Virus record (IMG/VR): IMGVR_UViG_3300028591_000144
Length of the DNA: 33,480 nt
Direction: 5' to 3' (one strand)
Source of the DNA: a virus
Shown piece after piece: positions 14,753-25,669 of this stretch (within the stretch, counting starts at the first letter, position 1; each line of letters opens with the position of its first letter). Below the pieces are notes generated by a model. That model was not told where the DNA came from, searched no databases, and was given only the letters and a program-made list of their open reading frames with translations. Made by a program: the position numbers and the translations under genes.

Positions 14753-14863
14753 ATGGGTTGGGGTTGGATTTGTGTGATAACTGGAATCTTAGTCTTTGGA
14801 ATAGCTTGGTATATTGATATTGTAAAACCACAGATTGATAAAATTTGTAAAAAAAATAAATAA
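14753..14863 (+). CDS. small membrane peptide (36 aa)
   Basis: SD AAAGGAGATAC. Single hydrophobic helix. Manual ORF. Confidence 0.5.
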   Translation: MGWGWICVITGILVFGIAWYIDIVKPQIDKICKKNK

Positions 14864-14906
14864 TAAAAAATAGAAGGAAGTAAACAGTTACTTAAATAAA
14901 TACATA

Positions 14907-14956
14907 GAGCGTCTTAAAGACGCTCCGTTTGCGTCTCACGCCAAGCAAACGGAGCG
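14907..14956 (+). repeat. hairpin-C family member with upstream alternative arm
   Basis: Arm gacgctc (14919-14925) can pair with upstream gagcgtc (14907-14913) or with downstream ggagcg in the 12-bp main stem. Confidence 0.65.
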
Positions 14957-15041
14957 AGTTTCGTTTATAGTCAAAATGACCAAAAATTTCATGACAAAAC
15001 CCCGGAGTTTTATGCAATTCATAGAATCCTGGAAAACAGTA

Positions 15042-15070
15042 TTGACATATTTTAAAAATTGCGGTATAAT
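15042..15070 (+). promoter_or_regulatory. sigma70-type promoter TTGACA-17-TATAAT
   Basis: Hexamers read from sequence. Confidence 0.8.
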
Positions 15071-15114
15071 GGGCTTGCCCGATGAGGGAAAGAACAAAAA
15101 ATAAGGAGATCATT

Positions 15115-15285
15115 ATGGATAACATGGCATTCGAACTGATGGAAGCAGAAAACACCATTCAGGAAGATTGGGAAAGATGGAAAGATGAATATGAAGATTT
15201 TGAAGAAGATATGGCAACAAACCCTTATGCCCCTATTGATGATATTGACTATGATATTGCAATTCATCCTTGGGACTATATTTAA
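15115..15285 (+). CDS. acidic small protein (56 aa), paralog of 11920-12078
   Basis: SD AAGGAGATC. Confidence 0.7.
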   Translation: MDNMAFELMEAENTIQEDWERWKDEYEDFEEDMATNPYAPIDDIDYDIAIHPWDYI

Positions 15286-15305
15286 TAATAAAGGAGAATC
15301 TACTA

Positions 15306-15560
15306 ATGAGCTGGACAGATATGTATGATACTCTTCACCTTAATGTTGGTGTAAGTAAAGAAGCCCTTGATCTTGCTTTTGGGCTTAATGGTTGCTCTGA
15401 AGAGACTGCCTGCGATATCCTCCGATATTATACTGGATATAATGACTTTGATCAGTATTTTGATTATGAGTCAGATGATGAAGAAGATTGCCTTGACGAG
15501 CTTTTCAATCTTGATGAAGGATTTGATCCTTATACAGGTTGTTATACCTACGATTGCTAA
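15306..15560 (+). CDS. highly acidic protein (84 aa)
   Basis: SD AAAGGAGAATC. Confidence 0.7.
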   Translation: MSWTDMYDTLHLNVGVSKEALDLAFGLNGCSEETACDILRYYTGYNDFDQYFDYESDDEEDCLDELFNLDEGFDPYTGCYTYDC

Positions 15561-15607
15561 ATAATCTCCTTTTTCTCCTTTTCTCCTCTCTTTTTTCTCT
15601 TTTGTGA

Positions 15608-15662
15608 TGGAGCGTCTAATTGGCGCTCCATTTGCGCGCGTCCCTCGCGCAAATGGAGCGTG
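15608..15662 (+). repeat. hairpin-C family member with triple-arm arrangement
   Basis: atggagcg (15608-15615), cgctccat (15625-15632), atggagcg (15654-15661). The middle arm can pair with either flanking arm. Preceded by a CT-rich tract 15566-15606. Confidence 0.7.
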
Positions 15663-15720
15663 TTTCATTTATGTAAAAATGTACTAAAAATCCAGGACAA
15701 ATATTGTGCATTTTACCATA

Positions 15721-15749
15721 TTGCATTTTTTCCTAATATATGGTAATAT
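15721..15749 (+). promoter_or_regulatory. sigma70-type promoter TTGCAT-17-TAATAT/TATAAT
   Basis: Hexamers read from sequence. Confidence 0.6.
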
Positions 15750-15782
15750 AATACCAAGAGATGAGAGGGGGGAGACCACTTA

Positions 15783-15935
15783 ATGAAAAAATTTATGTTC
15801 TATAATCATGAAGATGGTAATTGCTATTACGTCGTAGCTCAAAAGATAGAATATGCCTATGACATTATGTGTGATTATTTTGGTACTGAATATTTTGCCT
15901 GCTCATTTACTTATGAAGGAGAGATTGACAGATGA
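15783..15935 (+). CDS. hypothetical protein (50 aa)
   Basis: SD GAGGGGGGAG. Manual ORF. Confidence 0.5.
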   Translation: MKKFMFYNHEDGNCYYVVAQKIEYAYDIMCDYFGTEYFACSFTYEGEIDR

Positions 15936-16096
15936 ATAAAAATAAATGGTATTATGAAAATCCAATCACTGGTGAATTTACAGATGATCAGTCACTTGCC
16001 GAATGGTGGACATGGGATCACATTGATGTAAATTGTTGGAAGTGGTCGGACTATTTCAATAACTGGGGAGTCATAATGGTTTGGGAAGGCCAGTAA
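15932..16096 (+). CDS. Trp-rich small protein (54 aa)
   Basis: Start overlaps upstream stop (ATGA). Manual ORF. Confidence 0.5.
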   Translation: MNKNKWYYENPITGEFTDDQSLAEWWTWDHIDVNCWKWSDYFNNWGVIMVWEGQ

Positions 16097-16104
16097 AAAA
16101 GTTC

Positions 16105-16133
16105 TTGACAAACTAATACATTTCTGATATACT
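16105..16133 (+). promoter_or_regulatory. sigma70-type promoter TTGACA-17-TATACT
   Basis: Hexamers read from sequence. Confidence 0.75.
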
Positions 16134-16165
16134 ATAATTACAAAAGATAAGAAAGGAAAAAAACT

Positions 16166-16363
16166 ATGTGGTATACTTATAAGATTAATGATTCTGGCAA
16201 GGCAGTCCTCAGCAAGGCTTTTGAGAAAAAGGAAGACGCCATCCGTCATGCCTGCAAAACCCCCAAGGAAGCTACTTTTATTTCCAATACTGAGCCTGAT
16301 CTGCTCGGTAGGGCCTATAGTAATGACCCTAAATTTAATGCAACGAACTCCTCGGCCGCTTAA
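16166..16363 (+). CDS. hypothetical protein (65 aa)
   Basis: ORF track. SD AGAAAGGAAAAAAAC. Confidence 0.6.
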   Translation: MWYTYKINDSGKAVLSKAFEKKEDAIRHACKTPKEATFISNTEPDLLGRAYSNDPKFNATNSSAA

Positions 16364-16384
16364 ATGCGGCCTTTTTCTTTTTGC

Positions 16385-16424
16385 CGCTCGCTCCACGCAC
16401 GTTTCCTTGCGTGGAGCGAGCGAG
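16385..16424 (+). repeat. hairpin-C family member
   Basis: gctcgctccacgc-acgtttccttgc-gtggagcgagc. Confidence 0.65.
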
Positions 16425-16483
16425 TTTGCTTTATTGTATATTTTAGACAATTTTTAATAAAAATATTTATGCAAAATGCCATA

Positions 16484-16512
16484 TTGCAAAATTCCTAATA
16501 ATGTGATATATT
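16484..16512 (+). promoter_or_regulatory. sigma70-type promoter TTGCAA-17-TATATT
   Basis: Hexamers read from sequence. Confidence 0.7.
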
Positions 16513-16545
16513 ATAATCATCCAAGAGATAAAGGAGATCAAGATA

Positions 16546-16701
16546 ATGACTGAATTAATGGAAATGAAAGAAAAAGTTATAGCGCAGTATGGCAAAGACA
16601 GTTTTGAGGCCGGGTATATTCAATATATCTTTTCTAAACGTCCTACAGCATATTTTAAAAAAATTTGTATTGAATTGCTCACTAAAAAAAATAAAAAATA
16701 A
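16546..16701 (+). CDS. hypothetical protein (51 aa)
   Basis: SD AAAGGAGATCAAG. Manual ORF. Confidence 0.5.
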   Translation: MTELMEMKEKVIAQYGKDSFEAGYIQYIFSKRPTAYFKKICIELLTKKNKK

Positions 16702-16740
16702 TATAAAAAAAAACAAAAGAAAAGAAAGGAAATAAAAAAA

Positions 16741-17067
16741 ATGAAAACTAACATGACAGCCCACGCCAAATTTGATCGAGTCAACCGCCTGGAATATATC
16801 ATTAATACTATTGGTATTGGAAATGTAGTAGCTGAAATCTCTACTATTGATAAACAGGGACGAGCTGGCTTCCAGAAGCTGACAGATACAGGAGTTATTA
16901 TTATTCTCTCTGCTGATAATAAAACTATTGTCACTGCTTATATAGCTACCCCAGATCAGGCTTGCGCTGTTTATAAAACAGCAAAAAAAGTTAGCAGGGT
17001 GCCTGATGGACTGTATAGTAGAATCCGTAAAAATGAAGCTATTATGAAAAAGCAGCCTAAGTTTTAA
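16741..17067 (+). CDS. hypothetical protein (108 aa)
   Basis: ORF track. SD GAAAGGAAAT. Confidence 0.65.
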   Translation: MKTNMTAHAKFDRVNRLEYIINTIGIGNVVAEISTIDKQGRAGFQKLTDTGVIIILSADNKTIVTAYIATPDQACAVYKTAKKVSRVPDGLYSRIRKNEAIMKKQPKF

Positions 17068-17077
17068 TGTAAAAATA

Positions 17078-17110
17078 GGAAAGAGAAAAAAACTCTTTCC
17101 TATTTTTATT
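17078..17110 (+). terminator. rho-independent terminator
   Basis: aggaaagag-aaaaaaa-ctctttcct + ATTTTTATTT. Confidence 0.8.
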
Positions 17111-17111
17111 T

Positions 17112-17150
17112 GGCGTTTCCTTTGCGCGCGTTCCTTGCGCAGAGGAAACG
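17112..17150 (+). repeat. hairpin-C family member
   Basis: gcgtttcctttgcgc-gcgttccttgc-gcagaggaaacg. Confidence 0.65.
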
Positions 17151-17211
17151 AGTTATCCTTTTTGTTTACAATGTATAATTTTTTTTATATTTTTTTGTGC
17201 ATTATTACATA

Positions 17212-17239
17212 TTGCAAATTTCCTAAAAAGTGCTATAAT
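17212..17239 (+). promoter_or_regulatory. sigma70-type promoter TTGCAA-16-TATAAT driving a non-coding transcript
   Basis: Hexamers read from sequence. Confidence 0.65.
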
Positions 17240-17245
17240 CATAAT

Positions 17246-17345
17246 TGTCAAGGGGGAACGGAGAGAGTACGAGGCAAAAAGTCGTAAGACCTCTCGTGAG
17301 GGTGACATAATCAACGAGCCACGCGCCGTGAAAGTTTTTTTAAAA
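17246..17345 (+). ncRNA. candidate sRNA locus (family 1, copy 1)
   Basis: Own promoter and no ORF. Begins AATTGTCAAGGGGGA. Ends with hairpin plus AAAGTTTTTTT, just before the next promoter. Homologous start and end at 31965-32115. Confidence 0.5.
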
Positions 17346-17361
17346 AAAATAAGAAAACCCC

Positions 17362-17390
17362 TTGATATCTTTTCAGAAGTATGATATAAT
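17362..17390 (+). promoter_or_regulatory. sigma70-type promoter TTGATA-17-TATAAT (TG-extended)
   Basis: Hexamers read from sequence. Confidence 0.75.
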
Positions 17391-17425
17391 TAAATCACAA
17401 AAAAAATAAAAAGGAGATAAAAAAA

Positions 17426-17995
17426 ATGAATACTATTCTTGATTGTACTGTTACCACTCGTTGCCCCTTCTGCGGAAAATCCAATGATGTTAAAGTCAAT
17501 GAGATGGACTATCTTGATTGGCTGGATGGTAAACTGGCGCAGAAAGCATTCCCCTACCTCTCTGCTGATGAGCGTGAGATGCTGATTTCTGGCATCTGCC
17601 CTGCTTGCTGGGATTCTACATTCGGCTCTGATGAAGAGCCTGACCCCGATGAAGTAGACATTCATGGAAATACTTTTGGGGATGATGAAGAAGAAGAAAA
17701 TGAAAAAAATGAAGAAGATTCTGAGATGGAAAAATTGATGTCTGCGCTTACTGCTTACAACATCCCGTATGAAACGACTATTGATTGTACTGGAGAAGGT
17801 CTGCAAGTTTGGTATCCTTCGCGTGATGATAATATTTGTGACGTGATTTGTCATAAATATTCTTATGGCGGATCAGAAGGACTCCTGGAAATGATGGGCC
17901 TTGTCCCTGATGACTGGGGAGATAGCGTACAGGGATATCTGACCGCAGAAGAAGTATTCGGGCGTATTCACGCTAATTACTTTGGCACAGTTTAA
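17426..17995 (+). CDS. zinc-ribbon plus acidic-tail protein (189 aa). N-terminal 85 aa paralogous to 28387-28656
   Basis: ORF track. SD AAAGGAGATA. Motifs CPFCG...CPACWD. D/E-rich middle region. Confidence 0.75.
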   Translation: MNTILDCTVTTRCPFCGKSNDVKVNEMDYLDWLDGKLAQKAFPYLSADEREMLISGICPACWDSTFGSDEEPDPDEVDIHGNTFGDDEEEENEKNEEDSEMEKLMSALTAYNIPYETTIDCTGEGLQVWYPSRDDNICDVICHKYSYGGSEGLLEMMGLVPDDWGDSVQGYLTAEEVFGRIHANYFGTV

Positions 17996-18002
17996 TAAAA
18001 AA

Positions 18003-18058
18003 ACAGAGGAAATGCTTTGAGCGTTTCCTCTGCGCGCGTTCCTTGCGCAGAGGAAACG
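18003..18058 (+). repeat. hairpin-C family member with triple-arm arrangement
   Basis: cagaggaaa (18003-18011), tttcctctg (18023-18031), cagaggaaacg (18047-18057). The middle arm pairs with either. Confidence 0.7.
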
Positions 18059-18118
18059 TCTTTATATCATAGACAAAGTATACAAAAATCCAGGATAAAA
18101 GTTGTATATTATGTCATA

Positions 18119-18147
18119 TTGCATTTTCTCCTGATATATGGTATATT
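18119..18147 (+). promoter_or_regulatory. sigma70-type promoter TTGCAT-17-TATATT
   Basis: Hexamers read from sequence. Confidence 0.7.
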
Positions 18148-18179
18148 ATACTCACATAAGAGATAAGGAGATTATAAAA

Positions 18180-18374
18180 ATGCTTATTGACTATTTGTTT
18201 GAAAATGTAAATGAAGACAGTGATTGGTGCGGAGAGCAGTTTTTTGTAGAATGTAAAAAGAATGAAGACCCTTGGATTATAGTTAAAATGAACTTCTGCA
18301 CTACTGAAGATTTTGAATTAATTGGCGAATATACACCAGAAGAAGCAGAAATTTTAGGATATGATACCTATTAA
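18180..18374 (+). CDS. acidic small protein (64 aa)
   Basis: SD AAGGAGATTA. Start chosen at the SD-proximal ATG. Confidence 0.6.
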   Translation: MLIDYLFENVNEDSDWCGEQFFVECKKNEDPWIIVKMNFCTTEDFELIGEYTPEEAEILGYDTY

Positions 18375-18408
18375 GGTATCTACCATACATTAAAAAGGAG
18401 ATAAAAAG

Positions 18409-18633
18409 ATGAATCTTGAAAATTTGACTAATCGTGAGCGTTGCCTTCTGCGTGCAATTGGTATGCTTAAAGACCGTAAAAATTATTACGCCAGTATGCA
18501 TAAACCTGTTGATATTGATGTTACTGATAAAATGTATTGGGCCTATGATTCTGCTGTTGCAATTCTTGAGTCTGCGTGGGATGAAGATTTGGAAACACTG
18601 AATCAGTTTGATTATTTTGGAAAGGAAGACTAA
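18409..18633 (+). CDS. hypothetical protein (74 aa), operon-copy 1 gene A, paralog of 19696
   Basis: ORF track. SD AAAAGGAGATA. Confidence 0.7.
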   Translation: MNLENLTNRERCLLRAIGMLKDRKNYYASMHKPVDIDVTDKMYWAYDSAVAILESAWDEDLETLNQFDYFGKED

Positions 18634-18634
18634 A

Positions 18635-18856
18635 ATGCTTACTATTATTACTAAAGCTAACTCTGATTATTGGTATCAGTTTAAAGAAATTAACACTATT
18701 GAAGATATTCTTAGCCTTTACCCCAGATGCGTTGTAGAAAAAAATGATTATGATGAAAGTCTTGTCCCCTTTTGGGAAGGATTTAAAATAGAAGATATTC
18801 CTAATTTAAGGAAAGCAAAATGTCATATTATAATTTATAATGGCTATATAGAATAA
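18635..18856 (+). CDS. hypothetical protein (73 aa), operon-copy 1 middle gene
   Basis: SD GAAAGGAAGAC. Confidence 0.6.
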   Translation: MLTIITKANSDYWYQFKEINTIEDILSLYPRCVVEKNDYDESLVPFWEGFKIEDIPNLRKAKCHIIIYNGYIE

Positions 18857-18871
18857 AAAGGAATAAAATAA

Positions 18872-19060
18872 ATGTGGATTGAAGATTTGGTTAAAGCCCT
18901 TTATTTTTTGAATGCATCTGAATATAAGCATACAGTATGCATTGAAAAGATTGAAAAAGAATTAGTTTGGTTTTCAAATCATAAAACCATGCCTGTGCAG
19001 GTGCTTGCAAATTGTTATGACAATTATCTCAGAACAGGTGAAATTGTGAAACTTTGGTAA
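18872..19060 (+). CDS. hypothetical protein (62 aa), operon-copy 1 gene C, paralog of 20119
   Basis: ORF track. SD AAAAGGAATAA. Confidence 0.7.
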   Translation: MWIEDLVKALYFLNASEYKHTVCIEKIEKELVWFSNHKTMPVQVLANCYDNYLRTGEIVKLW

Positions 19061-19081
19061 AACAAAGTTTCACTTTTTTTA
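19047..19081 (+). terminator. rho-independent terminator
   Basis: gaaactttg-gtaaaa-caaagtttc + ACTTTTTTT. Confidence 0.8.
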
Positions 19082-19083
19082 TT

Positions 19084-19125
19084 GACGCCACCTTTGCGCG
19101 CGTCTCTTGCGCAAAGGTGGCGTCT
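19084..19125 (+). repeat. hairpin-C family member
   Basis: gacgccacctttgcgcgc-gtctct-tgcgcaaaggtggcgtc. Confidence 0.75.
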
Positions 19126-19182
19126 TTGCATCATAGACAAAGTCCCCAAAAATTAAAAACAAAAGTTGTGCATTATGCCATA

Positions 19183-19211
19183 TTGCAATTTTCCTAATTA
19201 TATTGTATAAT
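19183..19211 (+). promoter_or_regulatory. sigma70-type promoter TTGCAA-17-TATAAT
   Basis: Hexamers read from sequence. Confidence 0.75.
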
Positions 19212-19252
19212 AAGATTAATCAAAAGAAGAAAAATAAAAAGGAGATAAAAAG

Positions 19253-19429
19253 ATGAAAAATAAAAGAGATTGTGCTTGTTTGATGACTATTAAAGACTTG
19301 TATGATTGGGCAGTTGAGCAAGGTATTGAAGAATACATCCTATTTAAGTTTGATGTAGATGGTACAGTAAATAATTGTTTCACCTTTGATATTGAAGTTG
19401 ATGAAGATGAAAAAGCACTTATCCTGTAA
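19253..19429 (+). CDS. hypothetical protein (58 aa)
   Basis: SD AAAAGGAGATAAAAAG. Manual ORF. Confidence 0.55.
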   Translation: MKNKRDCACLMTIKDLYDWAVEQGIEEYILFKFDVDGTVNNCFTFDIEVDEDEKALIL

Positions 19430-19448
19430 TTAAGAAAGAAGTCACGCA

Positions 19449-19679
19449 ATGAAAGTTAGATTTATTTATACAAAGCAAGTAGAAGTAGAAAAAGAAGTAT
19501 CTGATGATTTTATTCCTCTCTTGGATGAAGACACAATGTATAGTCGTTCTTGGCTTGATTTAAATGAAGCATTTCGTGACCAAGCGTGGGAAATTTGGGC
19601 GCAGCTTGAAAAAGAACCTAACTTTTATCGACCTCTGGCTGTTATGACTGAGGATGATGATATTTTAGCAGAATATTAA
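19449..19679 (+). CDS. acidic protein (76 aa)
   Basis: ORF track. Confidence 0.6.
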   Translation: MKVRFIYTKQVEVEKEVSDDFIPLLDEDTMYSRSWLDLNEAFRDQAWEIWAQLEKEPNFYRPLAVMTEDDDILAEY

Positions 19680-19695
19680 AAAAGGAGATAAAAAG

Positions 19696-19896
19696 ATGAA
19701 TTCTGAAAATCTGACTAATCGTGAACGTTGTCTTCTGCGTGCAATTGGTATGCTTAAAGACCGTAAGAATTATTACGCTAATGCGTGCTGTGAAGAATAT
19801 TATGCTTATGATTCTGCCACTGCAATTCTTGAGTTTGCGTGGAACGAAAACTGGGAAGCGCTAAATCAGTTTGATTATTTTGGGGGGGAAAACTGA
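19696..19896 (+). CDS. hypothetical protein (66 aa), operon-copy 2 gene A
   Basis: ORF track. SD AAAAGGAGATA. Confidence 0.7.
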   Translation: MNSENLTNRERCLLRAIGMLKDRKNYYANACCEEYYAYDSATAILEFAWNENWEALNQFDYFGGEN

Positions 19897-19897
19897 A

Positions 19898-20116
19898 ATG
19901 AAAGCAAAAGTTGAATACATCACCAAAGTCGTGAAAGAGATTGAAGTTCCTGATAAATGGGCTGAATGGGCCGAATCAGGCTGGCAAGATGAAACGGTCT
20001 ATAAAGAGATCGAACAGTTTTGGCAAGACATTGCTAAGACAGAAGATGAATACTATTTTCAGCCAAGTGGCATTTATTATGGTAATAATTTTCAGTGGAT
20101 GATTGCGGAGTATTAA
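19898..20116 (+). CDS. acidic protein (72 aa), operon-copy 2 middle gene. Paralog at 29774
   Basis: SD GGGGGGGAAAAC. Confidence 0.6.
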   Translation: MKAKVEYITKVVKEIEVPDKWAEWAESGWQDETVYKEIEQFWQDIAKTEDEYYFQPSGIYYGNNFQWMIAEY

Positions 20117-20118
20117 AA

Positions 20119-20307
20119 ATGTGGATTGAAGATTTAACTAAAGCATTGTATTTTCTTAATGCATCTGATTATAAGTATACAGTTTGCATTGAAAAAATAG
20201 AGAAGAATGTCGTATTCTTTTCTAACAGACAATGCGTATCTGTAAAGCGTCTGGCTGATGCATACGATAAATATATTAAAACAGGTAAAATAGTAGATCT
20301 TTGGTAA
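20119..20307 (+). CDS. hypothetical protein (62 aa), operon-copy 2 gene C
   Basis: SD GCGGAGTA. Confidence 0.65.
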   Translation: MWIEDLTKALYFLNASDYKYTVCIEKIEKNVVFFSNRQCVSVKRLADAYDKYIKTGKIVDLW

Positions 20308-20323
20308 GGTCTACTATTTTATT

Positions 20324-20365
20324 GACGCCACCTTTGCGCGCGTCTCTTACGCAAAGGTGGCGTCT
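20324..20365 (+). repeat. hairpin-C family member (near-identical to 19084 copy)
   Basis: gacgccacctttgcgcgc-gtctct-tacgcaaaggtggcgtc. Confidence 0.75.
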
Positions 20366-20423
20366 TTTATCTTTTGAGTATATTGCACAATTTCCAGGCT
20401 ATATTTTTGTATATTTTTATAAT

Positions 20424-20452
20424 TGACTTTTTTCCTATTATACTGTATACTA
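20424..20452 (+). promoter_or_regulatory. sigma70-type promoter TTGACT-17-TATACT
   Basis: Hexamers read from sequence. Confidence 0.75.
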
Positions 20453-20485
20453 TAGACAATCCAAAAGATAAAGGAGAGAAAGACA

Positions 20486-20656
20486 ATGCGTAAAATTTAT
20501 TTTAAAGTGACTTATAAAAGACTTTGTGATAATCAACCTTGTATTATCTTCTGTAGAACGCTGGAAGAAGCTTATGCACGAATCGCTGAGAAGAAAGCTG
20601 AAAAACCTCCAAAATATTATGGATATAAAATTATTCCTATTAAATTAAAAGTATAA
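20486..20656 (+). CDS. hypothetical protein (56 aa)
   Basis: SD AAAGGAGAGAAAG. Manual ORF. Confidence 0.55.
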   Translation: MRKIYFKVTYKRLCDNQPCIIFCRTLEEAYARIAEKKAEKPPKYYGYKIIPIKLKV

Positions 20657-20680
20657 TTAAAGGAAAAGGAGAAATAAAAG

Positions 20681-20830
20681 ATGAGTACAAAAAATCCTTA
20701 TGCTATTAAAATGGATACAGAAACCCTTCAGCAGTACTTGGCTTTTCGCAATAAGCAGGGAGTTAAACCTGCAAAAAAAGGAAAAGGAAAAAAATACAGC
20801 CGTAATGATTTTAAAAAAGGAATTATTTAA
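20681..20830 (+). CDS. basic small protein (49 aa)
   Basis: SD AAAAGGAGAAAT. Manual ORF. Confidence 0.55.
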   Translation: MSTKNPYAIKMDTETLQQYLAFRNKQGVKPAKKGKGKKYSRNDFKKGII

Positions 20831-20849
20831 TTAAAAAGGAGATACTATT

Positions 20850-21026
20850 ATGGCACATTTTCAGGTAATTTTTGAGGATACTGTTCACGGCATCCAGATT
20901 AACCACTTTGACGAGTATGCTGATGCTCAGGAGTATTGGGATACTTACGCCGACCTGCCTACCTGCTATGCTGGTGAAATGATTGATCTCGATAATGAAG
21001 AAGTAATCTGGGAATTTGGAGAGTAA
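20850..21026 (+). CDS. acidic small protein (58 aa)
   Basis: SD AAAAGGAGATAC. Manual ORF. Confidence 0.55.
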   Translation: MAHFQVIFEDTVHGIQINHFDEYADAQEYWDTYADLPTCYAGEMIDLDNEEVIWEFGE

Positions 21027-21028
21027 TT

Positions 21029-21205
21029 ATGTACTGGAAAGATTTCCTTAAAGCAATTATTGATGAAATGCCCTCTCGTGATGATACTCGTATTTACATT
21101 CATGAGTATAAAAATGATTATGAAGTAGACTGCTATGAAATTATCAGTATTTCTAATGAGGGGTCAAACGATAGTATTTCTATCAATATAAAAAAAGTTG
21201 ACTAA
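21029..21205 (+). CDS. hypothetical protein (58 aa)
   Basis: Starts 2 nt after the upstream stop. Manual ORF. Confidence 0.5.
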   Translation: MYWKDFLKAIIDEMPSRDDTRIYIHEYKNDYEVDCYEIISISNEGSNDSISINIKKVD

Positions 21206-21270
21206 AGAGGGGAATTAATCCCCTCTAAAATCGCTTAGGCGCAGTTCATAATTTATTTACAATTCTTCTA

Positions 21271-21299
21271 TTGACTTTTTACAAAAAAGAAAGTATAAT
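21271..21299 (+). promoter_or_regulatory. sigma70-type promoter TTGACT-17-TATAAT (TTCATAATTTATTTACAATT upstream family)
   Basis: Hexamers read from sequence. Same upstream block at 28166 and 33196. Confidence 0.75.
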
Positions 21300-21344
21300 A
21301 ATATCTGTAGGAAAGAAAAAATAAAAAATAAAGGAGATAAAAAG

Positions 21345-21581
21345 ATGAAAGTTATCAGAGAAGCTGAAAAACGTGCAACTTATTTTTCAGACCTTCGTAT
21401 GGGTGATGTTTTTCTATTTTGTGAAAAACCATTTATTAAGATCTACACCTGCAAGATAAATAGTATAGAGAATAATACAATTATTAATGCTGTATGCCTT
21501 AATGATGGTGAAATATATGAATTTAATGCTTGGGATAAGGTAGAGTCTGTTAATGCTGAACTAACTATTAAAGTTAAATAA
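21345..21581 (+). CDS. hypothetical protein (78 aa)
   Basis: ORF track. SD AAAGGAGATAAAAAG. Confidence 0.7.
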   Translation: MKVIREAEKRATYFSDLRMGDVFLFCEKPFIKIYTCKINSIENNTIINAVCLNDGEIYEFNAWDKVESVNAELTIKVK

Positions 21582-21617
21582 TGAAGAAATTATTTAAGCT
21601 TTTGGAGATAAAAATAA

Positions 21618-21872
21618 ATGATAAAAGAATGGTTTGAATTAAAGAAACCTTATCATTTCGAAACGAATGATATTATTGCATTGCTAAATTTATTTAATAC
21701 TTTTGCTGTGATAGCGTTTGGGCTTATAGCTTCTTGGTTTGGGCTTGCAATTGCTATTATCTGCATCATTGATGACATTATTGAAGTAAGACGCTTTAAT
21801 CTTATGACGCTGCATCTTTCGATTGCTATTCTTAATGCTTATTTTCTTATGACTTTTTATAACATATTATGA
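21618..21872 (+). CDS. two-helix membrane protein (84 aa), tandem paralog 1
   Basis: ORF track. Confidence 0.65.
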   Translation: MIKEWFELKKPYHFETNDIIALLNLFNTFAVIAFGLIASWFGLAIAIICIIDDIIEVRRFNLMTLHLSIAILNAYFLMTFYNIL

Positions 21873-22123
21873 TGAAACAATTTTTTAAAATAGAAAAAAA
21901 ATATACTCCAGAGTGGAATGACTTTCGTAGCTTACTTACAGTAATTAATGTTCTTTTAGTCCTAAAATTTGGATTATCTATTTCATGGATAACTTTTGGA
22001 GTTGCAATTTTAGGAATCTGTAAAGATTTAACTGTAAGTAGACGAATTAATGATTTAATTATGCACTCTGCTAATGCTATTTTAAATGGTTATTTTCTTT
22101 TAATGTTTTATAATATCATATAA
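21869..22123 (+). CDS. two-helix membrane protein (84 aa), tandem paralog 2
   Basis: ORF track. ATGA overlap with upstream gene. Confidence 0.65.
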   Translation: MMKQFFKIEKKYTPEWNDFRSLLTVINVLLVLKFGLSISWITFGVAILGICKDLTVSRRINDLIMHSANAILNGYFLLMFYNII

Positions 22124-22127
22124 TATT

Positions 22128-22160
22128 TAGACCTATTGAAAAATATCAATAGGTCTTTTC
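22128..22160 (+). terminator. rho-independent terminator
   Basis: agacctattg-aaaaatat-caataggtct + TTT. Confidence 0.75.
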
Positions 22161-22200
22161 CACGCCTGCTTCACGCACGTTTCTTACGTGAAGCAGGCGT
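22161..22200 (+). repeat. hairpin-C family member
   Basis: acgcctgcttcacg-cacgtttcttac-gtgaagcaggcgt. Confidence 0.7.
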
Positions 22201-22260
22201 CTTTTACTTTATATATAAATTGCATAATTTCCAGGCTCTTTTTTTGTGTAATATGCCATA

Positions 22261-22289
22261 TTGCAATTTTCCTGATAGTATGTTATATT
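22261..22289 (+). promoter_or_regulatory. sigma70-type promoter TTGCAA-17-TATATT
   Basis: Hexamers read from sequence. Confidence 0.7.
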
Positions 22290-22320
22290 ATATTTAACCA
22301 AGAGAAAGGAAGAAAAAATA

Positions 22321-22863
22321 ATGAAGAAAATGAATTGCGTTCATCCTCGCAGAGCTTATAACCTGATGAAGTCTTTTATTAATACTGCCTCTGATATGAT
22401 TTACATGATTGATGATGAAACTGAAAAGGCAGAAATTCTTTTGCATAAAGGAGATAGTTTTATGGCTCTTCTTGGAGAGTGCATAAACTACGATAGCGAA
22501 CAGGAAATTTATTATAATTTTCCTGAACTGTGGGCTGAATCTTCTAAAATTTTTCGTGAGTATTGGTGCGCTAAATGCCCTATGTTGAAAGGGTTCTCTG
22601 ATATTACAATTTCTTTGCTTCATGAGCTGGGGCATCTTGAAACCAATGATGCAGTAAGAGAATATTTTCCAATTCATATCAGAAACCTCGCTATTAAAGG
22701 GGCAGAGGCTGTTGCTTCTAATTATAAAGAATTAAATTTTATTTATTTTGATCTTCCTGATGAAAAAGCAGCCACTGAATGGGCTATTGAATGGCTGTCT
22801 GATGCAGAAAATCGTAAAATTACTAAAAAATTTGAAAAAGAGTTTTTTAAGTGTTTTAAATAA
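22321..22863 (+). CDS. putative zinc metallopeptidase (HExxH) family protein (180 aa)
   Basis: ORF track. Motif LLHELGHLE (HExxH). Size and motif fit ImmA/IrrE-like or SprT-like small metallopeptidases. Confidence 0.65.
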   Translation: MKKMNCVHPRRAYNLMKSFINTASDMIYMIDDETEKAEILLHKGDSFMALLGECINYDSEQEIYYNFPELWAESSKIFREYWCAKCPMLKGFSDITISLLHELGHLETNDAVREYFPIHIRNLAIKGAEAVASNYKELNFIYFDLPDEKAATEWAIEWLSDAENRKITKKFEKEFFKCFK

Positions 22864-22904
22864 TAATTAAAAATAAATTATAAAGATAAGGGGCTGTCTT
22901 TAAG

Positions 22905-22943
22905 GCGGCTCCTTTGCGCGCGTTCCCTGCGCAAAGGAGCCGA
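22905..22943 (+). repeat. hairpin-C family member
   Basis: ggcggctcctttgcgcgc-gttccc-tgcgcaaaggagccg. Confidence 0.7.
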
Positions 22944-23003
22944 GTTTAAGTTATTGTAAAAAAAGCATAATTTTTTATATTTATTTTTGTATAATTTAAC
23001 ATA

Positions 23004-23032
23004 TTGCATTTTTCCTAATATTATAGTATAAT
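23004..23032 (+). promoter_or_regulatory. sigma70-type promoter TTGCAT-17-TATAAT
   Basis: Hexamers read from sequence. Confidence 0.7.
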
Positions 23033-23064
23033 AAGATCAAAGAATAAAAAAAAGGAGATAAAAA

Positions 23065-23217
23065 ATGTATTATACAATTCTCTATTATAAAGATTGGCCT
23101 GTGCATACTTCTAAAAAGTTTGAAACTTGGGAAGAGGCTAATAACTGGGGAAAAGAACACATTAGGAAGAAACACGGTTCAAATAAATATAAATGGTATA
23201 AAATAAAAGCAGATTAA
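23065..23217 (+). CDS. basic Trp/Tyr-rich small protein (50 aa)
   Basis: SD AAAAGGAGATAAAAA. Manual ORF. Confidence 0.5.
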   Translation: MYYTILYYKDWPVHTSKKFETWEEANNWGKEHIRKKHGSNKYKWYKIKAD

Positions 23218-23278
23218 AAAACTGCTTTTATTTATACATCGAATCAAAAAGAAAAATAAAAAAATCTTAAAAAACTAC

Positions 23279-23307
23279 TTGACAAATTGTCAGGACTATA
23301 CTATAAT
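23279..23307 (+). promoter_or_regulatory. sigma70-type promoter TTGACA-17-TATAAT
   Basis: Hexamers read from sequence. Confidence 0.8.
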
Positions 23308-23341
23308 GAAATCACAAAAGAGATAAAGGAGATAAAAAAAA

Positions 23342-23506
23342 ATGAAAGTAAAAGAATTGATCGAACTGCTTAAGACCTATGATGAAGATACTACAGTTTA
23401 TGTTTGGGACGAGACAGGATATTATGGGAAAAAAATTATAGTAAATAATCAGAATTATAAGTTTACAGAAGAAAAAGCTATTCTTTTAGATCACCTTGAT
23501 TTTTAA
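23342..23506 (+). CDS. hypothetical protein (54 aa), N-terminus paralogous to 24786
   Basis: SD AAAGGAGATAAAAAAAA. MKVKELIELLKTYDED matches MTVKELMNILSKYDED. Confidence 0.55.
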   Translation: MKVKELIELLKTYDEDTTVYVWDETGYYGKKIIVNNQNYKFTEEKAILLDHLDF

Positions 23507-23517
23507 TAAAAAACTTA

Positions 23518-23546
23518 TTGACAAATAGTCCGGTCTGTACTATAAT
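23518..23546 (+). promoter_or_regulatory. sigma70-type promoter TTGACA-17-TATAAT
   Basis: Hexamers read from sequence. Confidence 0.8.
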
Positions 23547-23580
23547 ATAGATAGAAAGCAAGAGAAAAGGAGATAAAAAA

Positions 23581-23853
23581 ATGGATTTTTTTGAACTTGT
23601 CACAATAGAACCTGTTTATGGTCTTTGCCATTATTATTACTTTTATCCTGTTGGGGTACATCATACATGGTATTTGACTCTTGATAGCAACTATCCTAGT
23701 AAGTTGCTGATGTTAATTAAAGACAGAAATGAAACGCCCCTTTATTTAACCAAAATTTCTTTCTTTCAGTATATTAAAAATAAGTATCTACGAAAAGCAA
23801 CGAGCCGTTTCTTTTATGGAAAACGTATAAATTGGGAAAAAGAGAAACTTTAA
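23581..23853 (+). CDS. hypothetical protein (90 aa)
   Basis: ORF track. SD AAAAGGAGATAAAAAA. Confidence 0.65.
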   Translation: MDFFELVTIEPVYGLCHYYYFYPVGVHHTWYLTLDSNYPSKLLMLIKDRNETPLYLTKISFFQYIKNKYLRKATSRFFYGKRINWEKEKL

Positions 23854-23881
23854 AAAAGTTTCTCTTTTTTAAAAAAAAGTA

Positions 23882-23910
23882 TTGACGAATGACCGGGCCT
23901 GTGCTATAAT
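23882..23910 (+). promoter_or_regulatory. sigma70-type promoter TTGACG-17-TATAAT
   Basis: Hexamers read from sequence. Confidence 0.75.
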
Positions 23911-23942
23911 GAAATTACAAAAGAGAAAAGGAGATAAAAAAA

Positions 23943-24098
23943 ATGAAAAAGTATATTATCACTTATCGTTCTTTTAAAACCCACTGGGATAAAGAAGTCT
24001 ATACTGAAAAAGAAAAAGAGATAGCAGAATGGCGTTTCAATTCTTTAATGGAATGTGAAAATGCTGATAATGTAAAAATGGAAATTAGAGAAGATTAA
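23943..24098 (+). CDS. hypothetical protein (51 aa)
   Basis: SD AAAAGGAGATAAAAAAA. Manual ORF. Confidence 0.55.
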   Translation: MKKYIITYRSFKTHWDKEVYTEKEKEIAEWRFNSLMECENADNVKMEIRED

Positions 24099-24127
24099 AA
24101 AAGTCTTCTCTTTTTTTTAAAAATATA

Positions 24128-24156
24128 TTGACAAATAACCAGTCTTGTGCTATACA
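24128..24156 (+). promoter_or_regulatory. sigma70-type promoter TTGACA-17-TATACA
   Basis: Hexamers read from sequence. Followed immediately by terminator 24157-24188. Confidence 0.6.
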
Positions 24157-24188
24157 GACCCTTACACTGAGTAAGGGTCATTTTTTTT

Positions 24189-24250
24189 GGCAACTTACGC
24201 TCAGCCGCGCGCTGGCCGGCGTCCCTGGGTCAGCGCGCGGTTTTTGACGT
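24189..24250 (+). other. GC-rich (about 75 percent) island with hairpin ccgcgcgctg...cagcgcgcgg + TTTTT
   Basis: Composition sharply unlike flanks. Non-coding. Lies between two promoters. Confidence 0.5.
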
Positions 24251-24298
24251 GTAGTATAATCCAGAAAATTTTTGTGCATTTTGACGAACGATTTAGAG

Positions 24299-24327
24299 TT
24301 GACAACTACGCCCGAATGTGGTATAGT
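24299..24327 (+). promoter_or_regulatory. sigma70-type promoter TTGACA-17-TATAGT (TG-extended)
   Basis: Hexamers read from sequence. Confidence 0.7.
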
Positions 24328-24358
24328 ATAAGCACAAAAAGAAAAGGAGATACAAATC

Positions 24359-24559
24359 ATGGAAGAATTTAATAATTTTGAAATCTTTTTCCGTACTCGT
24401 AATAGTTGTGTTATTAAGGTGCCTAAAAATCTTAAAAATAAAAATGAGATTAGAGAATTTATTATTGATAAAATTATTAATGATGAATTAGAAAGCTGGA
24501 TTGATAAATGGTTTGATTTTGAAATTGAAGATTTTGAAATTGTAGAAGAGGAAGAATAA
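24359..24559 (+). CDS. acidic protein (66 aa)
   Basis: ORF track. SD AAAAGGAGATAC. Confidence 0.65.
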   Translation: MEEFNNFEIFFRTRNSCVIKVPKNLKNKNEIREFIIDKIINDELESWIDKWFDFEIEDFEIVEEEE

Positions 24560-24562
24560 AAA

Positions 24563-24766
24563 ATGTATAAAACAGTATGGAGCATTTATTATAATGGAGA
24601 CAAAACAGAGCTGACTTGGTATCATTTTGGTTCTGCTCCTAAATTCCCTACTTGGTACATGGAAGCAAATACAGTTTATGAGATTGAAATGATTTGGAAT
24701 GTGAAACTTGTTTTCAATTTCAATACATTTATGAAGTGTCTGACTCATACTTACATTATAAAATAA
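24563..24766 (+). CDS. hypothetical protein (67 aa)
   Basis: ORF track. SD AGAGGAAGAATA. Confidence 0.6.
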   Translation: MYKTVWSIYYNGDKTELTWYHFGSAPKFPTWYMEANTVYEIEMIWNVKLVFNFNTFMKCLTHTYIIK

Positions 24767-24785
24767 AAAAAAAGGAGATAATAAA

Positions 24786-24992
24786 ATGACTGTTAAAGAA
24801 TTAATGAATATCCTGAGCAAGTATGATGAGGATATGATTGTCCGCGTAATTGGCGGCGAAAGTGAATCCGGTGAGTGGGCCGAACTGGAAGTCGGAAAGG
24901 AAATCAAAAGGCCTTTTATCGATTGCGAAGGTATAGAGAGATGGTTTTACACTGACTTTGATGGTGAAGTCATCCTGGAAGAGAGCTACTAA
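24786..24992 (+). CDS. acidic protein (68 aa)
   Basis: ORF track. SD AAAAGGAGATAAT. Confidence 0.65.
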   Translation: MTVKELMNILSKYDEDMIVRVIGGESESGEWAELEVGKEIKRPFIDCEGIERWFYTDFDGEVILEESY

Positions 24993-25027
24993 GCTCTCTT
25001 CTTTTGCTTCTAGTTGATAAAAAATAA

Positions 25028-25056
25028 TTGACTTTTATTTTTTTTTATGCTATACT
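25028..25056 (+). promoter_or_regulatory. sigma70-type promoter TTGACT-17-TATACT
   Basis: Hexamers read from sequence. Confidence 0.75.
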
Positions 25057-25088
25057 AAATTATAGTATAATTATAAGGAGTTAAATTA

Positions 25089-25295
25089 ATGAAATTGTTT
25101 CAGGTAAAAATAAAGTATACTTTTGTGAATAGTAAAACGACTTATTTTAGCATTAATTATGTCCTTGCAGAGAATATTGACCACATTGAAGAAATAATTA
25201 AAAACTGGATTACAGAAGAAGACTCTGAAGCTATAATTTTAAACTTTGAGGCGCATGAATTGCCAATGATTGAACAGGTATTGCCGGGCTGGTAA
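25089..25295 (+). CDS. hypothetical protein (68 aa)
   Basis: ORF track. SD TAAGGAGTTA. Confidence 0.6.
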   Translation: MKLFQVKIKYTFVNSKTTYFSINYVLAENIDHIEEIIKNWITEEDSEAIILNFEAHELPMIEQVLPGW

Positions 25296-25328
25296 TACCT
25301 GCTTTTTTTATATTTAGAAAAAAAACTA

Positions 25329-25357
25329 TTGACTTTTTATTTATTATATGTTATTAT
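25329..25357 (+). promoter_or_regulatory. sigma70-type promoter TTGACT-17-TATTAT
   Basis: Hexamers read from sequence. Confidence 0.65.
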
Positions 25358-25390
25358 ATATATAAGATAAATAAAGGAGATAAAAAAATT

Positions 25391-25669
25391 ATGACTTTTA
25401 TTCTTAATAAGTGCTATGGTGGCTGGTCGATTTCTGATTTTGCTAAGGAACAGCTGGGCCTTGATTCTAACTACCCTGACAGGGATGAAGTAGATGAAAA
25501 GAAACTGGCAGAATTGATTAATGAGTATGGCTCTGAGAAGTGCTCTGGACGTAGTGCCTGGCTTAAAATAGTTGAAATCCCTGATAATGCTACCGATTGG
25601 GACATTGATGAGTATGATGGCATTGAAAGAATCGTCTATGTTATTGATGGGAAACTAAGGTATGCCTAA
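25391..25669 (+). CDS. acidic protein (92 aa)
   Basis: ORF track. SD AAAGGAGATAAAAAAATT. Confidence 0.65.
   Translation: MTFILNKCYGGWSISDFAKEQLGLDSNYPDRDEVDEKKLAELINEYGSEKCSGRSAWLKIVEIPDNATDWDIDEYDGIERIVYVIDGKLRYA

Follow-up and report, generated by a model that had tools for sequence, protein, structure and literature searches.

The question raised by this locus is why the 5′ arm of a recurrent intergenic hairpin is preceded, at some of its copies, by a second segment with which it can also pair. The window, that is the whole 33,480-nt stretch analysed (IMG/VR record IMGVR_UViG_3300028591_000144), comes from an uncultured, AT-rich phage whose genome measures ~100 kb or more, and covers part of its small-gene (early-type) region. 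No DNA similarity to the window was found among deposited phages, and its protein hits are weak and not T4-like. To judge from the sequence, the expression signals of this phage look Gram-positive, and the hosts of this group of uncultured phages are probably Gram-positive.

Hairpin C and its cassette

The recurrent hairpin, hairpin C, is found by a covariance model at 19 places in the window (Table 1), with + strand scores far above those of the - strand for every copy. On the alignment of 39 sequences it is a single family: 98.4% of the positions in its 14 pairs are paired, and compensatory changes occur at 12 of the 14. The stems are 12–16 bp long, GC-rich and uninterrupted by internal loops, with energies of -21 to -32 kcal/mol, and are followed by the tail nnTTTnnnTT, an imperfect U-tract with 5–8 T in 10, two of them invariant.

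All 19 cassettes lie between small + strand ORFs, and those of the related contigs L055 and L196 are likewise intergenic. The repeated order is an ordinary intrinsic terminator (T1), a second, very stable hairpin, hairpin C (T2), with its short T-rich tail, a sigma-70-type promoter ~70 nt further on, an RBS and an ATG. In the alignment every copy of hairpin C sits inside a conserved unit of tail nnTTT, promoter block TTGTGCAAT...CATATTGCAATTTTCCT, RBS and ATG, and its distance to the -35 box is fixed. The succession of a stable stem-loop, an AT-rich stretch, sigma-70-like -35/-10 boxes and a Shine-Dalgarno site is recognized here from sequence only, namely from the alignment, promoter-like sites and hairpin energies.

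Terminator-like sites are enriched in the window (30 vs 10.1 expected), and six of its hairpin C copies pass a simple terminator scan. We infer that hairpin C terminates transcription. A role as a second terminator is supported by more distant relatives, in which a GC hairpin, shorter than hairpin C and trailed by an uninterrupted TTTTT(T), comes after T1 and before a similar promoter block. The window and L055 differ in gene order in a mosaic fashion, cassettes occupying the junctions, and neighbouring copies of hairpin C have common stems (17114/18022, 19086/20326, 25714/27273, 12900/14921), which implies local duplication. Furthermore, the stems are 97% Watson-Crick, with 10 G-U and 5 A-C among 737 pairs, and this near-perfect pairing looks more like a maintained DNA palindrome than a typical RNA helix. 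The sister lineage L210 carries at the position of hairpin C an invariant 8-bp palindrome, GCCCGGGC, which hints at a DNA-level role and counts against our main reading.

Table 1. Positions of hairpin C, the upstream arm X and associated elements in the window
Feature	Position	Strand	Details
All hairpin C copies, span	11717..32875	+	19 copies, covariance model
Hairpin C stem starts	11717, 12276, 12900, 13384, 14108, 14921, 15624, 16385, 17114, 18022	+	
Hairpin C stem starts, continued	19086, 20326, 22163, 22906, 25714, 27273, 30247, 31837, 32839	+	
Upstream hairpin, copy 1	14907-14925	+	GAGCGTCT (14907-14914) / TAA / AGACGCTC (14918-14925), 8 bp
Hairpin C, copy 1	14921-14956	+	12-bp stem CGCTCCGTTTGC/GCAAACGGAGCG, tail AGTTTCGTTT
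X, copy 2	15607-15614	+	ATGGAGCG; pairs with X′ CGCTCCAT 15624-15631, 8 bp
Hairpin C, copy 2	15624-15660	+	15-bp stem, loop CGTCCCT, tail TGTTTCATTT
X, copy 3	18004-18014	+	CAGAGGAAATG; pairs with X′ CGTTTCCTCTG 18022-18032, 11 bp, one G-U
Hairpin C, copy 3	18022-18058	+	14-bp stem, loop GCGTTCCTT, tail TCTTTATATC
X, copy 4	22888-22896	+	AAGGGGCTG; pairs with CGGCTCCTT 22906-22914, 9 bp, two G-U
Hairpin C, copy 4	22906-22942	+	14-bp stem, loop GCGTTCCCT, tail AGTTTAAGTT
Hairpin C, weaker case	12276-12311	+	looser complement ATGCGCG ~12234-12240, roughly 30-nt loop
Hairpin C, weaker case	12900-12935	+	6-bp upstream complement CGCAAA/TTTGCG; T1 ~12775-12808
Ordinary arrangement, example 1	17070-17150	+	T1 17070-17108 (AT-rich, independent), T-rich linker, hairpin C 17114-17150
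Ordinary arrangement, example 2	19046-19124	+	T1 19046-19073, then TTTTTTT, hairpin C 19084-19124
Promoter-like site after copy 1	15042..15070	+	TTGACA-17-TATAAT
Promoter-like site after copy 2	15721..15749	+	TTGCAT-17-TAATAT, TG upstream
Promoter-like site after copy 3	18119..18147	+	TTGCAT-17-TATATT
Promoter-like site after copy 4	23004..23032	+	TTGCAT-17-TATAAT

The upstream arm X and its relation to T1

At the X-type copies a segment X, 3–10 nt upstream of hairpin C (3–9 nt in copies 1 to 3), pairs with the 5′ arm (X′) and repeats the end of the 3′ arm. The earlier note had described three such copies, and these are present, with corrections, at 14907, 15607 and 18004; a fourth at 22888 was missed, and two looser cases lie at 12276 and 12900. 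The layout X / X′ / X stands as geometry, but the exact copy of the 3′ arm claimed for all three does not extend to copy 1, where the upstream hairpin overlaps hairpin C by 5 nt only (14921-14925, CGCTC), so that the duplicated 3′ arm sequence is GAGCG only. Upstream and downstream pairings, given there as 9 and 12–14 bp, amount to 8 vs 12, 8 vs 15 and 11 vs 14 bp in copies 1 to 3, with one G-U pair in the upstream hairpin of copy 3. The hairpin C of copy 1 is identical to that at 12900-12935, which lacks an adjacent X. In copy 2, X is identical to 15653-15660 of the 3′ arm, and G15606 provides an additional G-U pair. The X of copy 3 starts 8 nt past the stop codon of ORF 17426-17995, and the ortholog of copy 4 in L055 has X = AAAGGAGCTG, with 10 bp and one G-U. 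In the weaker 12276 cassette, T1 lies ~85 nt further upstream (12159-12189).

The potential for upstream pairing was scored between the 30 nt preceding hairpin C and its 5′ arm, with mismatched upstream/arm pairings as the control. A helix score of at least 8 is reached by 8 of 45 hairpin C copies vs 1% of the mismatched pairings, and the four X-type regions fold with z = -4.1 to -5.7 relative to dinucleotide shuffles. The X sequences are unrelated from cassette to cassette. Their distance from the preceding stop codon ranges from -2 to ~140 nt, with X starting no more than 8 nt from it in five of nine placeable cases.

As the earlier note had proposed, the middle segment is able to pair either upstream or downstream. 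The full hairpin C and the state combining the upstream hairpin with the hairpin top are 1.1–10.7 kcal/mol apart; hairpin C is favoured by 5–9 kcal/mol in the four copies of the window, and at 10356 and 12165 of L196 the minimum-energy fold is the upstream-hairpin state.

The distribution of X is related to that of T1. In a survey of 57 cassettes from six phage contigs, 16 are X-type, 36 T1-type, five neither and none both (Fisher p = 3.5e-10). X-type cassettes, of which further examples occur in L055, L100, L196 and L236/L314, are about a quarter of the units, and X stands in place of the missing T1. The X:X′ hairpins contribute ~12–24 kcal/mol, a range equal to that of the T1 hairpins. Since every X-type boundary retains a good promoter for the gene that follows, a need for read-through is not obvious.

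Comparison of homologous loci finds the extra arm conserved in related phages and partly co-varying, which favours a functional element; the outcome that the earlier note named as refuting, an arm missing from relatives, is thus not what is seen. Identity in the flanking protein is 77% for L182 and 76% for L184, both of which have the same X. In L185 (62%) a single position has changed in concert in X, X′ and the 3′ arm, and X is kept in L055 despite a different upstream gene. For the small sample of five orthologs, 92 of 500 shuffles reach the observed X:X′ covariation score. Mismatches in the X:X′ helix, counted by reading the sequences, comprise seven of G-U type vs one of A-C type and no transversions; this 7:1 count is modest (one-sided p ~0.035, own calculation), and the G-U excess fits pairing in + strand RNA.

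Interpretation of X and the alternatives

The reading that we favour, tentatively and short of calling it probable, is that X may act constitutively, like an antiterminator arm, and make hairpin C weaker in cassettes that lack T1, so that X-type boundaries would be leaky. Because X is transcribed before the 3′ arm, the nascent RNA would fold X:X′ first; the 3′ arm would then have to displace X in order to complete hairpin C beside the U-rich tail, and this step would delay or lower termination. Strand displacement can be fast, and the effect of X on termination may therefore be small. The boundaries would be graded, with T1+T2 tight, T2 alone intermediate and X+T2 leaky, and transcription from the upstream promoter would also reach the gene that follows an X-type boundary. 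X is read as a fixed attenuator because no sensing component was found in these cassettes, and it would respond at most to generic inputs, namely polymerase speed or a ribosome on a nearby stop codon. If so, the insulation of each small early gene would be tuned by three interchangeable parts, a double terminator, a single terminator and a terminator plus competitor, a simple and evolvable read-through setting that works without any regulator. The cassettes would also offer graded terminators for synthetic biology, and they form a natural variant set for measuring how a competitor arm placed upstream affects intrinsic termination.

An extension of this reading, which we regard as quite doubtful, would make X-type boundaries sites of programmed, condition-dependent read-through, with T1, X and GCCCGGGC as interchangeable modules of a boundary code, so far undescribed, of a large clade of uncultured phages. 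The formation of hairpin C would then be set by a phage factor, by a ribosome at the stop codon or by a nuclease recognising the conserved hairpin top, and this would link or separate the members of a fixed group of early genes over time.

Rather unlikely, in our estimate, is that X is a functionless by-product of DNA processes (recombining or duplicating cassettes, template switching, concerted evolution), with inverted repeats kept matched by template switching in replication and X a leftover or templated copy. Such an origin is consistent with the mosaic gene order relative to L055, with the local duplication seen in common stems, with the almost perfect Watson-Crick pairing expected from templated correction and with the weak formal covariation of X:X′. 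A random by-product, however, would not avoid T1 throughout, and X has outlasted both divergence to 62% protein identity and the exchange of the upstream gene, with a + strand mismatch bias of 7:1. Simple slippage or deletion does not explain an inverted copy 3–10 nt upstream, and the bases after X are not copied from the hairpin C tail (in our own reading of the sequences, 1–6 of 8–9 are identical to those after the 3′ arm). The local triplication by slipped replication suggested in the earlier note is not supported: slippage yields direct tandem copies, whereas X and the adjacent X′ are in inverted orientation, and X recurs at ~12 independent cassettes, spread over five or more phage contigs and confined to places without the ordinary terminator. 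Also unlikely is a function of X:X′ as a substitute for T1 at RNA 3′ ends, with no switch involved. Hairpin C would be cut or trimmed by RNase III, RNase Y or a phage nuclease, and the upstream mRNA would need its own protection, given by T1 in most cassettes and in X-type ones by X:X′, which would form after loss of the 3′ arm. That X and T1 never occur in one cassette suggests the same job, their stabilities are similar, and the G-U bias points to RNA. Against this, no nuclease or cleavage site is known for hairpin C, and hairpin C would itself already protect any RNA that ends there. Phage T7 has RNase III processing hairpins between its early genes, and an RNase III site is generally a duplex of ~20 bp or more, often with an internal loop, a length that the uninterrupted 12–16 bp of hairpin C do not reach. 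Hairpin C does resemble the T7 hairpins, and those of the Bacillus phage SP82, in being conserved between early genes of a phage using the host polymerase; the conserved SP82 early-gene hairpins are RNase III sites (Panganiban and Whiteley 1983, as cited in PMC4838370).

A role of hairpin C mainly as a DNA element of the promoter unit appears improbable. It would be a protein-binding palindrome or cruciform ~75–110 bp upstream of the start site, shielded by T1 from incoming transcription, and X would provide an alternative DNA hairpin or prevent folding of the RNA copy. The fixed distance to the -35 box, the near-perfect palindromes and the invariant GCCCGGGC at the equivalent position in L210 and others (11 copies vs 0.01 expected) argue for it. 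Nevertheless, the stem sequence varies freely with compensation, so that a protein recognising a specific duplex sequence would be limited to the ends or loop of hairpin C; the second hairpin of the relatives is followed by a plain U-run, and the G-U bias of X:X′ is not expected for DNA. The least credible reading is a true regulated switch, a riboswitch or a protein- or ribosome-dependent attenuator sensing a signal. The two helices are indeed mutually exclusive and close in energy, and where X lies within 8 nt of the stop codon a terminating ribosome could mask it; yet X is unrelated between cassettes and its distance from the stop codon varies widely. The riboswitch-like character suggested in the earlier note is not supported. 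No Rfam family matches these elements, whether judged by its gathering score or by E below 0.01; there is no conserved stretch of aptamer size, nor space for an aptamer, and no upstream segment complementary to X (a third, anti-antiterminator segment) was found. The variable X stands not in a leader but where a gene ends, before the promoter that belongs to the following gene.

Comparison with known systems

The closest counterparts are the promoter-early stem-loop (PeSL) cassettes of T4-type phages (Arbiol et al. 2010, PMC2839356; Comeau et al. 2014, PMC4122927), which consist of a small intergenic terminator/attenuator stem-loop, an AT-rich stretch, a strong sigma-70-like promoter and a Shine-Dalgarno site. 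PeSLs recur in plastic regions associated with gene shuffling, where they separate small genes whose function is unknown, and their terminator activity, promoter activity and mini-circles have been shown experimentally (PMC2839356, PMC4122927). The cassettes described here have the same part order, many copies and mosaic gene order between relatives. In contrast to the experimental activity of PeSLs, they are known from sequence alone; they have no sequence relation to T4-type phages, their expression signals look Gram-positive, they usually contain two hairpins (T1 and the conserved T2), and their subset with an overlapping competitor arm is not mentioned in PMC2839356 or PMC4122927. Judged by its parts, the cassette would be PeSL-like in its working, without homology to PeSL, and the idea of mobile terminator-promoter cassettes would extend from T4-type phages of Gram-negative hosts to a large group of uncultured phages, probably of Gram-positive hosts.

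With terminator/antiterminator attenuators (trp-type leaders, riboswitch platforms) the X-type cassettes share one RNA segment with two possible partners, an earlier-made helix that excludes the terminator helix, and a terminator that is the more stable of the two. They differ in having no aptamer, leader peptide or anti-antiterminator segment, in lying after a stop codon and before the promoter of the following gene instead of in a 5′ leader, and in occurring as many copies with differing sequences.

Tandem intrinsic terminators, such as rrnB T1T2, likewise end a transcription unit with two back-to-back hairpins carrying T-rich tails. Here, however, the second hairpins form a conserved family linked to the promoter downstream, and the X-type first hairpin uses a strand of the second, so that the two cannot form together. 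In the more distant relatives both hairpins carry plain U-runs.

Architecture and relatives of the hairpin C cassette

The perfect-hairpin scan yielded 16 GC-rich stems of 12-16 bp, and alignment of these hairpins together with their downstream sequence revealed a single conserved unit. In this unit hairpin C is followed by the tail nnTTTnnnTT, about 35 nt in which TGCACAATTT and a CCAGG box are frequent, the block TTGTGCAATATnCCATATTGCAATTTTCCTAA, a -10 box located 17 nt downstream of TTGCAA, an RBS and the ATG. In the window the 17-nt promoter-block core is present in 11 copies, where 0.03 would be expected. Across 39 aligned sequences from the window and its relatives, hairpin C comprises 14 pairs, 12 of which show compensatory changes; the overall pairing of 98.4% follows by construction from the choice of perfect hairpins as alignment copies, which does not hold for the diversity of pair types in homologous units. 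The covariance model built from this alignment recovers 19 window copies, each with a far better score on the + strand, on which all genes lie. Immediately upstream of most of them lies T1, an unrelated AT-rich hairpin with a T-run behind it, of the usual intrinsic-terminator type. Terminator-like sites in 8000-27000 number 30 against 10.1 expected, six being hairpin C copies.

Two further elements are seen in the cassettes. A near-palindrome, TGCAATAT-N3-ATATTGCA, overlaps the -35 box and, judged by its sequence, looks like the operator of a dimeric regulator. In some cassettes the stretch from hairpin C to the promoter contains the CCAGG (CCWGG) box in the context AATTTCCAGGM, and CCTGG replaces it in two others.

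The window has no DNA match among sequenced phages, and its protein matches to known phages are weak and scattered. Its genes are small and mostly of unknown function, with a GNAT acetyltransferase, a few PHROG families of unknown function and one tRNA-Ser; contigs as long as 97 kb carry an identical protein. The names of the samples hint at a rumen origin. L054 represents this phage in another assembly (99.9% identical). The hairpin C unit is carried by the related phage contigs L055 (35% GC, 19 copies), L100, L182, L184 and L185, and by the more distant IMG/VR contig L192/L196 (44-48% GC). The promoter-block scan returned many more relatives, few with long perfect hairpins, among the matches listed. 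The hairpin-top motif gave GC-rich chance matches in public viral contigs and, in metagenomes, L100 as the only true relative among the matches listed; the 17-nt promoter motif gave single matches at chance level in viral contigs. In even more distant contigs, 60-190 kb long, the shared promoter block comes after T1 and a GC hairpin that is shorter and is followed by a plain TTTTT run. It is mainly for this reason that we infer hairpin C to be T2, the second of two terminators in tandem.

Sites with an upstream competitor arm

An X, X', X arrangement, in which a segment (X) just upstream of hairpin C can pair with its 5' arm (X') in competition with the 3' arm, had been described at three sites in an earlier note. 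It is indeed present at all three, with helix lengths and extents that needed correcting. The upstream helix of copy 3, taken as 9 bp, comprises 11 bp with one G-U, and the supposed exact copy of the 3' arm at copy 1 reduces to GAGCG, because no more than the last five bases of the upstream hairpin fall within the main hairpin. A fourth case had been overlooked, and two looser ones are present.

Coordinates of the features discussed (window positions unless a related contig is named)
Feature	Position	Sequence or remark
X site, copy 1	14907-14956	Upstream hairpin GAGCGTCT/AGACGCTC, 8 bp
X site, copy 2	15607-15660	ATGGAGCG present twice, flanking CGCTCCAT; 8 bp upstream, 15 bp downstream
X site, copy 3	18004-18058	CAGAGGAAATG, 7-nt linker, CGTTTCCTCTG, hairpin top, CAGAGGAAACG; downstream hairpin 14 bp
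X site, fourth case	22888-22896 with 22906-22914	AAGGGGCTG with CGGCTCCTT, two G-U pairs
Looser X cases	12276, 12900
Independent X-type units, L055	16371, 16914
Independent X-type unit, L100	2528
Independent X-type units, L196	8552, 9119, 10356, 12165
Independent X-type unit, L236/L314
Near-palindrome at -35 box	e.g. 19166-19190, 32920-32944	TGCAATAT-N3-ATATTGCA
CCAGG box	e.g. 15689-15695, 18088-18094; also after 20326, 22163, 27273, 31837
CCTGG in place of CCAGG	after 14108 and 14921
Pyrimidine-only (CT-rich) tract	15561-15606	~45 nt
26-nt repeat	12207-12232, 12831-12856	TATAGACAACAAAAGTGACAACAAAA
~300-bp repeat unit	3149-3380, 5159-5403, 6535-6763, 8285-8616, 9386-9718	Copies ~84% identical
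A-runs	8548-8570, 11880-11905	~22-24 nt
Paralogous small genes	11838-12078, 15042-15285	MENMAFELMEAENTI... and MDNMAFELMEAENTI...
tRNA-Ser	26135-26215	Anticodon CGA, among small genes
8-bp palindrome in L210	169, 1420, 2413, 3444, 4672, 9901, 10839, 11891, 12870, 17387, 18228	GCCCGGGC

For 45 hairpin C copies, the strongest helix that the 5' arm can form with the preceding 30 nt was scored; 8 copies attained 8 or more, compared with 1% of mismatched upstream/arm pairings. Six phage contigs supplied 57 cassettes, which were classified by energy: T1 was taken as present if the preceding 45 nt reach a folding energy of -9 kcal/mol or lower, and a cassette was called X-type if including the 5' arm lowers the energy by 8 kcal/mol or more with 5 or more arm bases paired. 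Of these cassettes, 16 were X-type, 36 T1-type and 5 without either element, and no cassette combined the two (Fisher p = 3.5e-10), a clean separation even though the two criteria are partly dependent, a formed T1 leaving less free sequence. X-type units thus represent a discrete class confined to sites without T1. The X:X' hairpin equals the T1 hairpin in stability, and in ordinary cassettes the complementarity of T1 arms to hairpin C arms does not exceed the permutation null.

Orthologs of the unit at 18004 follow homologs of ORF 17426-17995. The X of this unit is identical in L182 and L184 (77% and 76% protein identity), and in L185 (62%) a T->C change in the 5' arm is matched by A->G in both the 3' arm and X, which carries two more pairing-preserving changes (A-U to G-U, U-G to C-G). 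In L055, X did not follow a compensated change in hairpin C, and one A-C mismatch results. The formal X:X' covariation test on these five sequences is weak, the observed score being reached in 92 of 500 shuffles. L055 retains X at this unit despite a different upstream gene, and at the 22888 unit despite an extra one, which indicates that X travels with hairpin C. By reading, the internal mismatches of X:X' comprise seven of the G-U type on the + strand, one of the A-C type and no transversions; this 7:1 bias (one-sided p ~0.035 by our own binomial estimate) points modestly to pairing in + strand RNA.

Next to these sites, the pyrimidine-only tract abutting the 5' side of the X of copy 2 contains the motif CTCCT, a complement of Shine-Dalgarno sequences, three times, and the 26-nt repeat of two neighbouring cassettes lies within an 85-nt insert that parts T1 from hairpin C.

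Possible functions of the competitor arm

In the four window copies the full hairpin C is 5.1-9.2 kcal/mol more stable than the upstream hairpin combined with the hairpin top; overall the margin is 1.1-10.7 kcal/mol. For the L196 units 10356 and 12165, the fold of lowest energy is the one with the upstream hairpin. Since X is transcribed first, the nascent RNA would keep X:X' until displacement by the 3' arm. The tentatively preferred reading, whose probability we place slightly short of even, is that the cassette is a terminator-promoter unit in which, in a subset, the competitor arm replaces the first terminator and should weaken the second. Termination at hairpin C would then be reduced wherever X stands in place of T1, and the mix of cassette types would provide gene boundaries of graded tightness. 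In this best-supported reading the cassette functions like the promoter-early stem-loop (PeSL) cassettes of T4-type phages (PMC2839356, PMC4122927), of which it is no homolog; the kind of cassette is known, the example new. The competitor arm is a variation on well-known terminator/antiterminator logic, its effect being predicted from sequence, and as far as we found the literature holds no earlier description of an overlapping arm as a regular alternative to T1.

The mutually exclusive geometry put forward in the earlier note is real and conserved in relatives. Its riboswitch-like character failed every test run: Rfam gave nothing at gathering score across the whole window, a permissive scan of 12000-23200 returned only chance-level matches (e.g., miRNA models at 31 bits against a threshold of 85 bits), and no segment upstream of X able to sequester it was found, scores not exceeding those of shuffled controls. 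The arrangement is therefore two-state rather than a four-segment attenuator, and a true sensing switch formed by X and hairpin C appears very improbable. The distance from stop codon to X ranges from -2 to about 140 nt and is at most 8 nt in 5 of 9 placeable cases; masking of X by a terminating ribosome is thus possible at some sites, not as a general feature. That X:X' provides a substitute 3'-end hairpin once hairpin C is processed, a role for which its T1-like stability may be considered, is unlikely.

The DNA-level views draw on the 97% Watson-Crick pairing of hairpin C stems (10 G-U and 5 A-C in 737 pairs from the 57 cassettes of the window, L055, L100, L185, L187 and L196), with no clear strand bias among these wobbles, several of which lie at the loop edge. 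Such perfection, unusual for an RNA helix given the free sequence variation, suggests that the palindrome undergoes templated correction as DNA. They draw also on the sister phage L210, which lacks hairpin C and has the invariant 8-bp palindrome GCCCGGGC at exactly that position. A DNA-level by-product maintained by concerted evolution is nevertheless a rather unlikely origin of X, the 7:1 mismatch bias pointing modestly to RNA, and it is quite improbable that hairpin C serves the promoter as a DNA element. Triplication by slipped replication, also proposed in the earlier note, does not account for the inverted orientation of the arm or for its appearance in about a dozen independent cassettes, exclusively T1-less ones. 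Local duplication of X plus linker from the 3' arm plus tail was rejected, as only 1-6 of the 8-9 following bases agree.

Sister-lineage palindrome and mosaic surroundings

L210 and L211, fetched for extra orthologs, added no covariation data, hairpin C being absent from both. The palindrome GCCCGGGC occurs in L210 in 11 copies against 0.01 expected, placed after a variable hairpin that lacks a T-run, with AAGTTCATAAATTATT and the promoter downstream. It recurs, again in place of hairpin C, in the sister phages L057, L059, L187 and L188 and in six IMG/VR loci, with zero copies in the window. It may represent a collapsed or ancestral hairpin C, or a DNA-binding site.

Gene order is mosaic between the window and L055, with orthologs 46-97% identical, reordered and interrupted by insertions (PcfJ-like genes in L055). 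The cassettes lie at the junctions of this mosaic, an arrangement like that described for PeSL-mediated shuffling. The paralogous small genes have a common promoter and leader (TTGACn-17-TATAATGGGCTTGCCCGA), by which sequence the pair is a putative local cassette duplication. The first 12 kb of the window carry a different intergenic repeat, the ~300-bp unit, which contains a terminator, the GC-rich block CAACCGCACGTGCTGGGTAGGGCTGGGCAGCAAAAGCCGAGTT, the palindrome AAAAATATTGCAAAAAAAATATTTTT and a leader hairpin GTCCTGC...GCAGGC ahead of the RBS. The A-runs lie between promoter and RBS, as slippage-prone homopolymers of the 5' leader.
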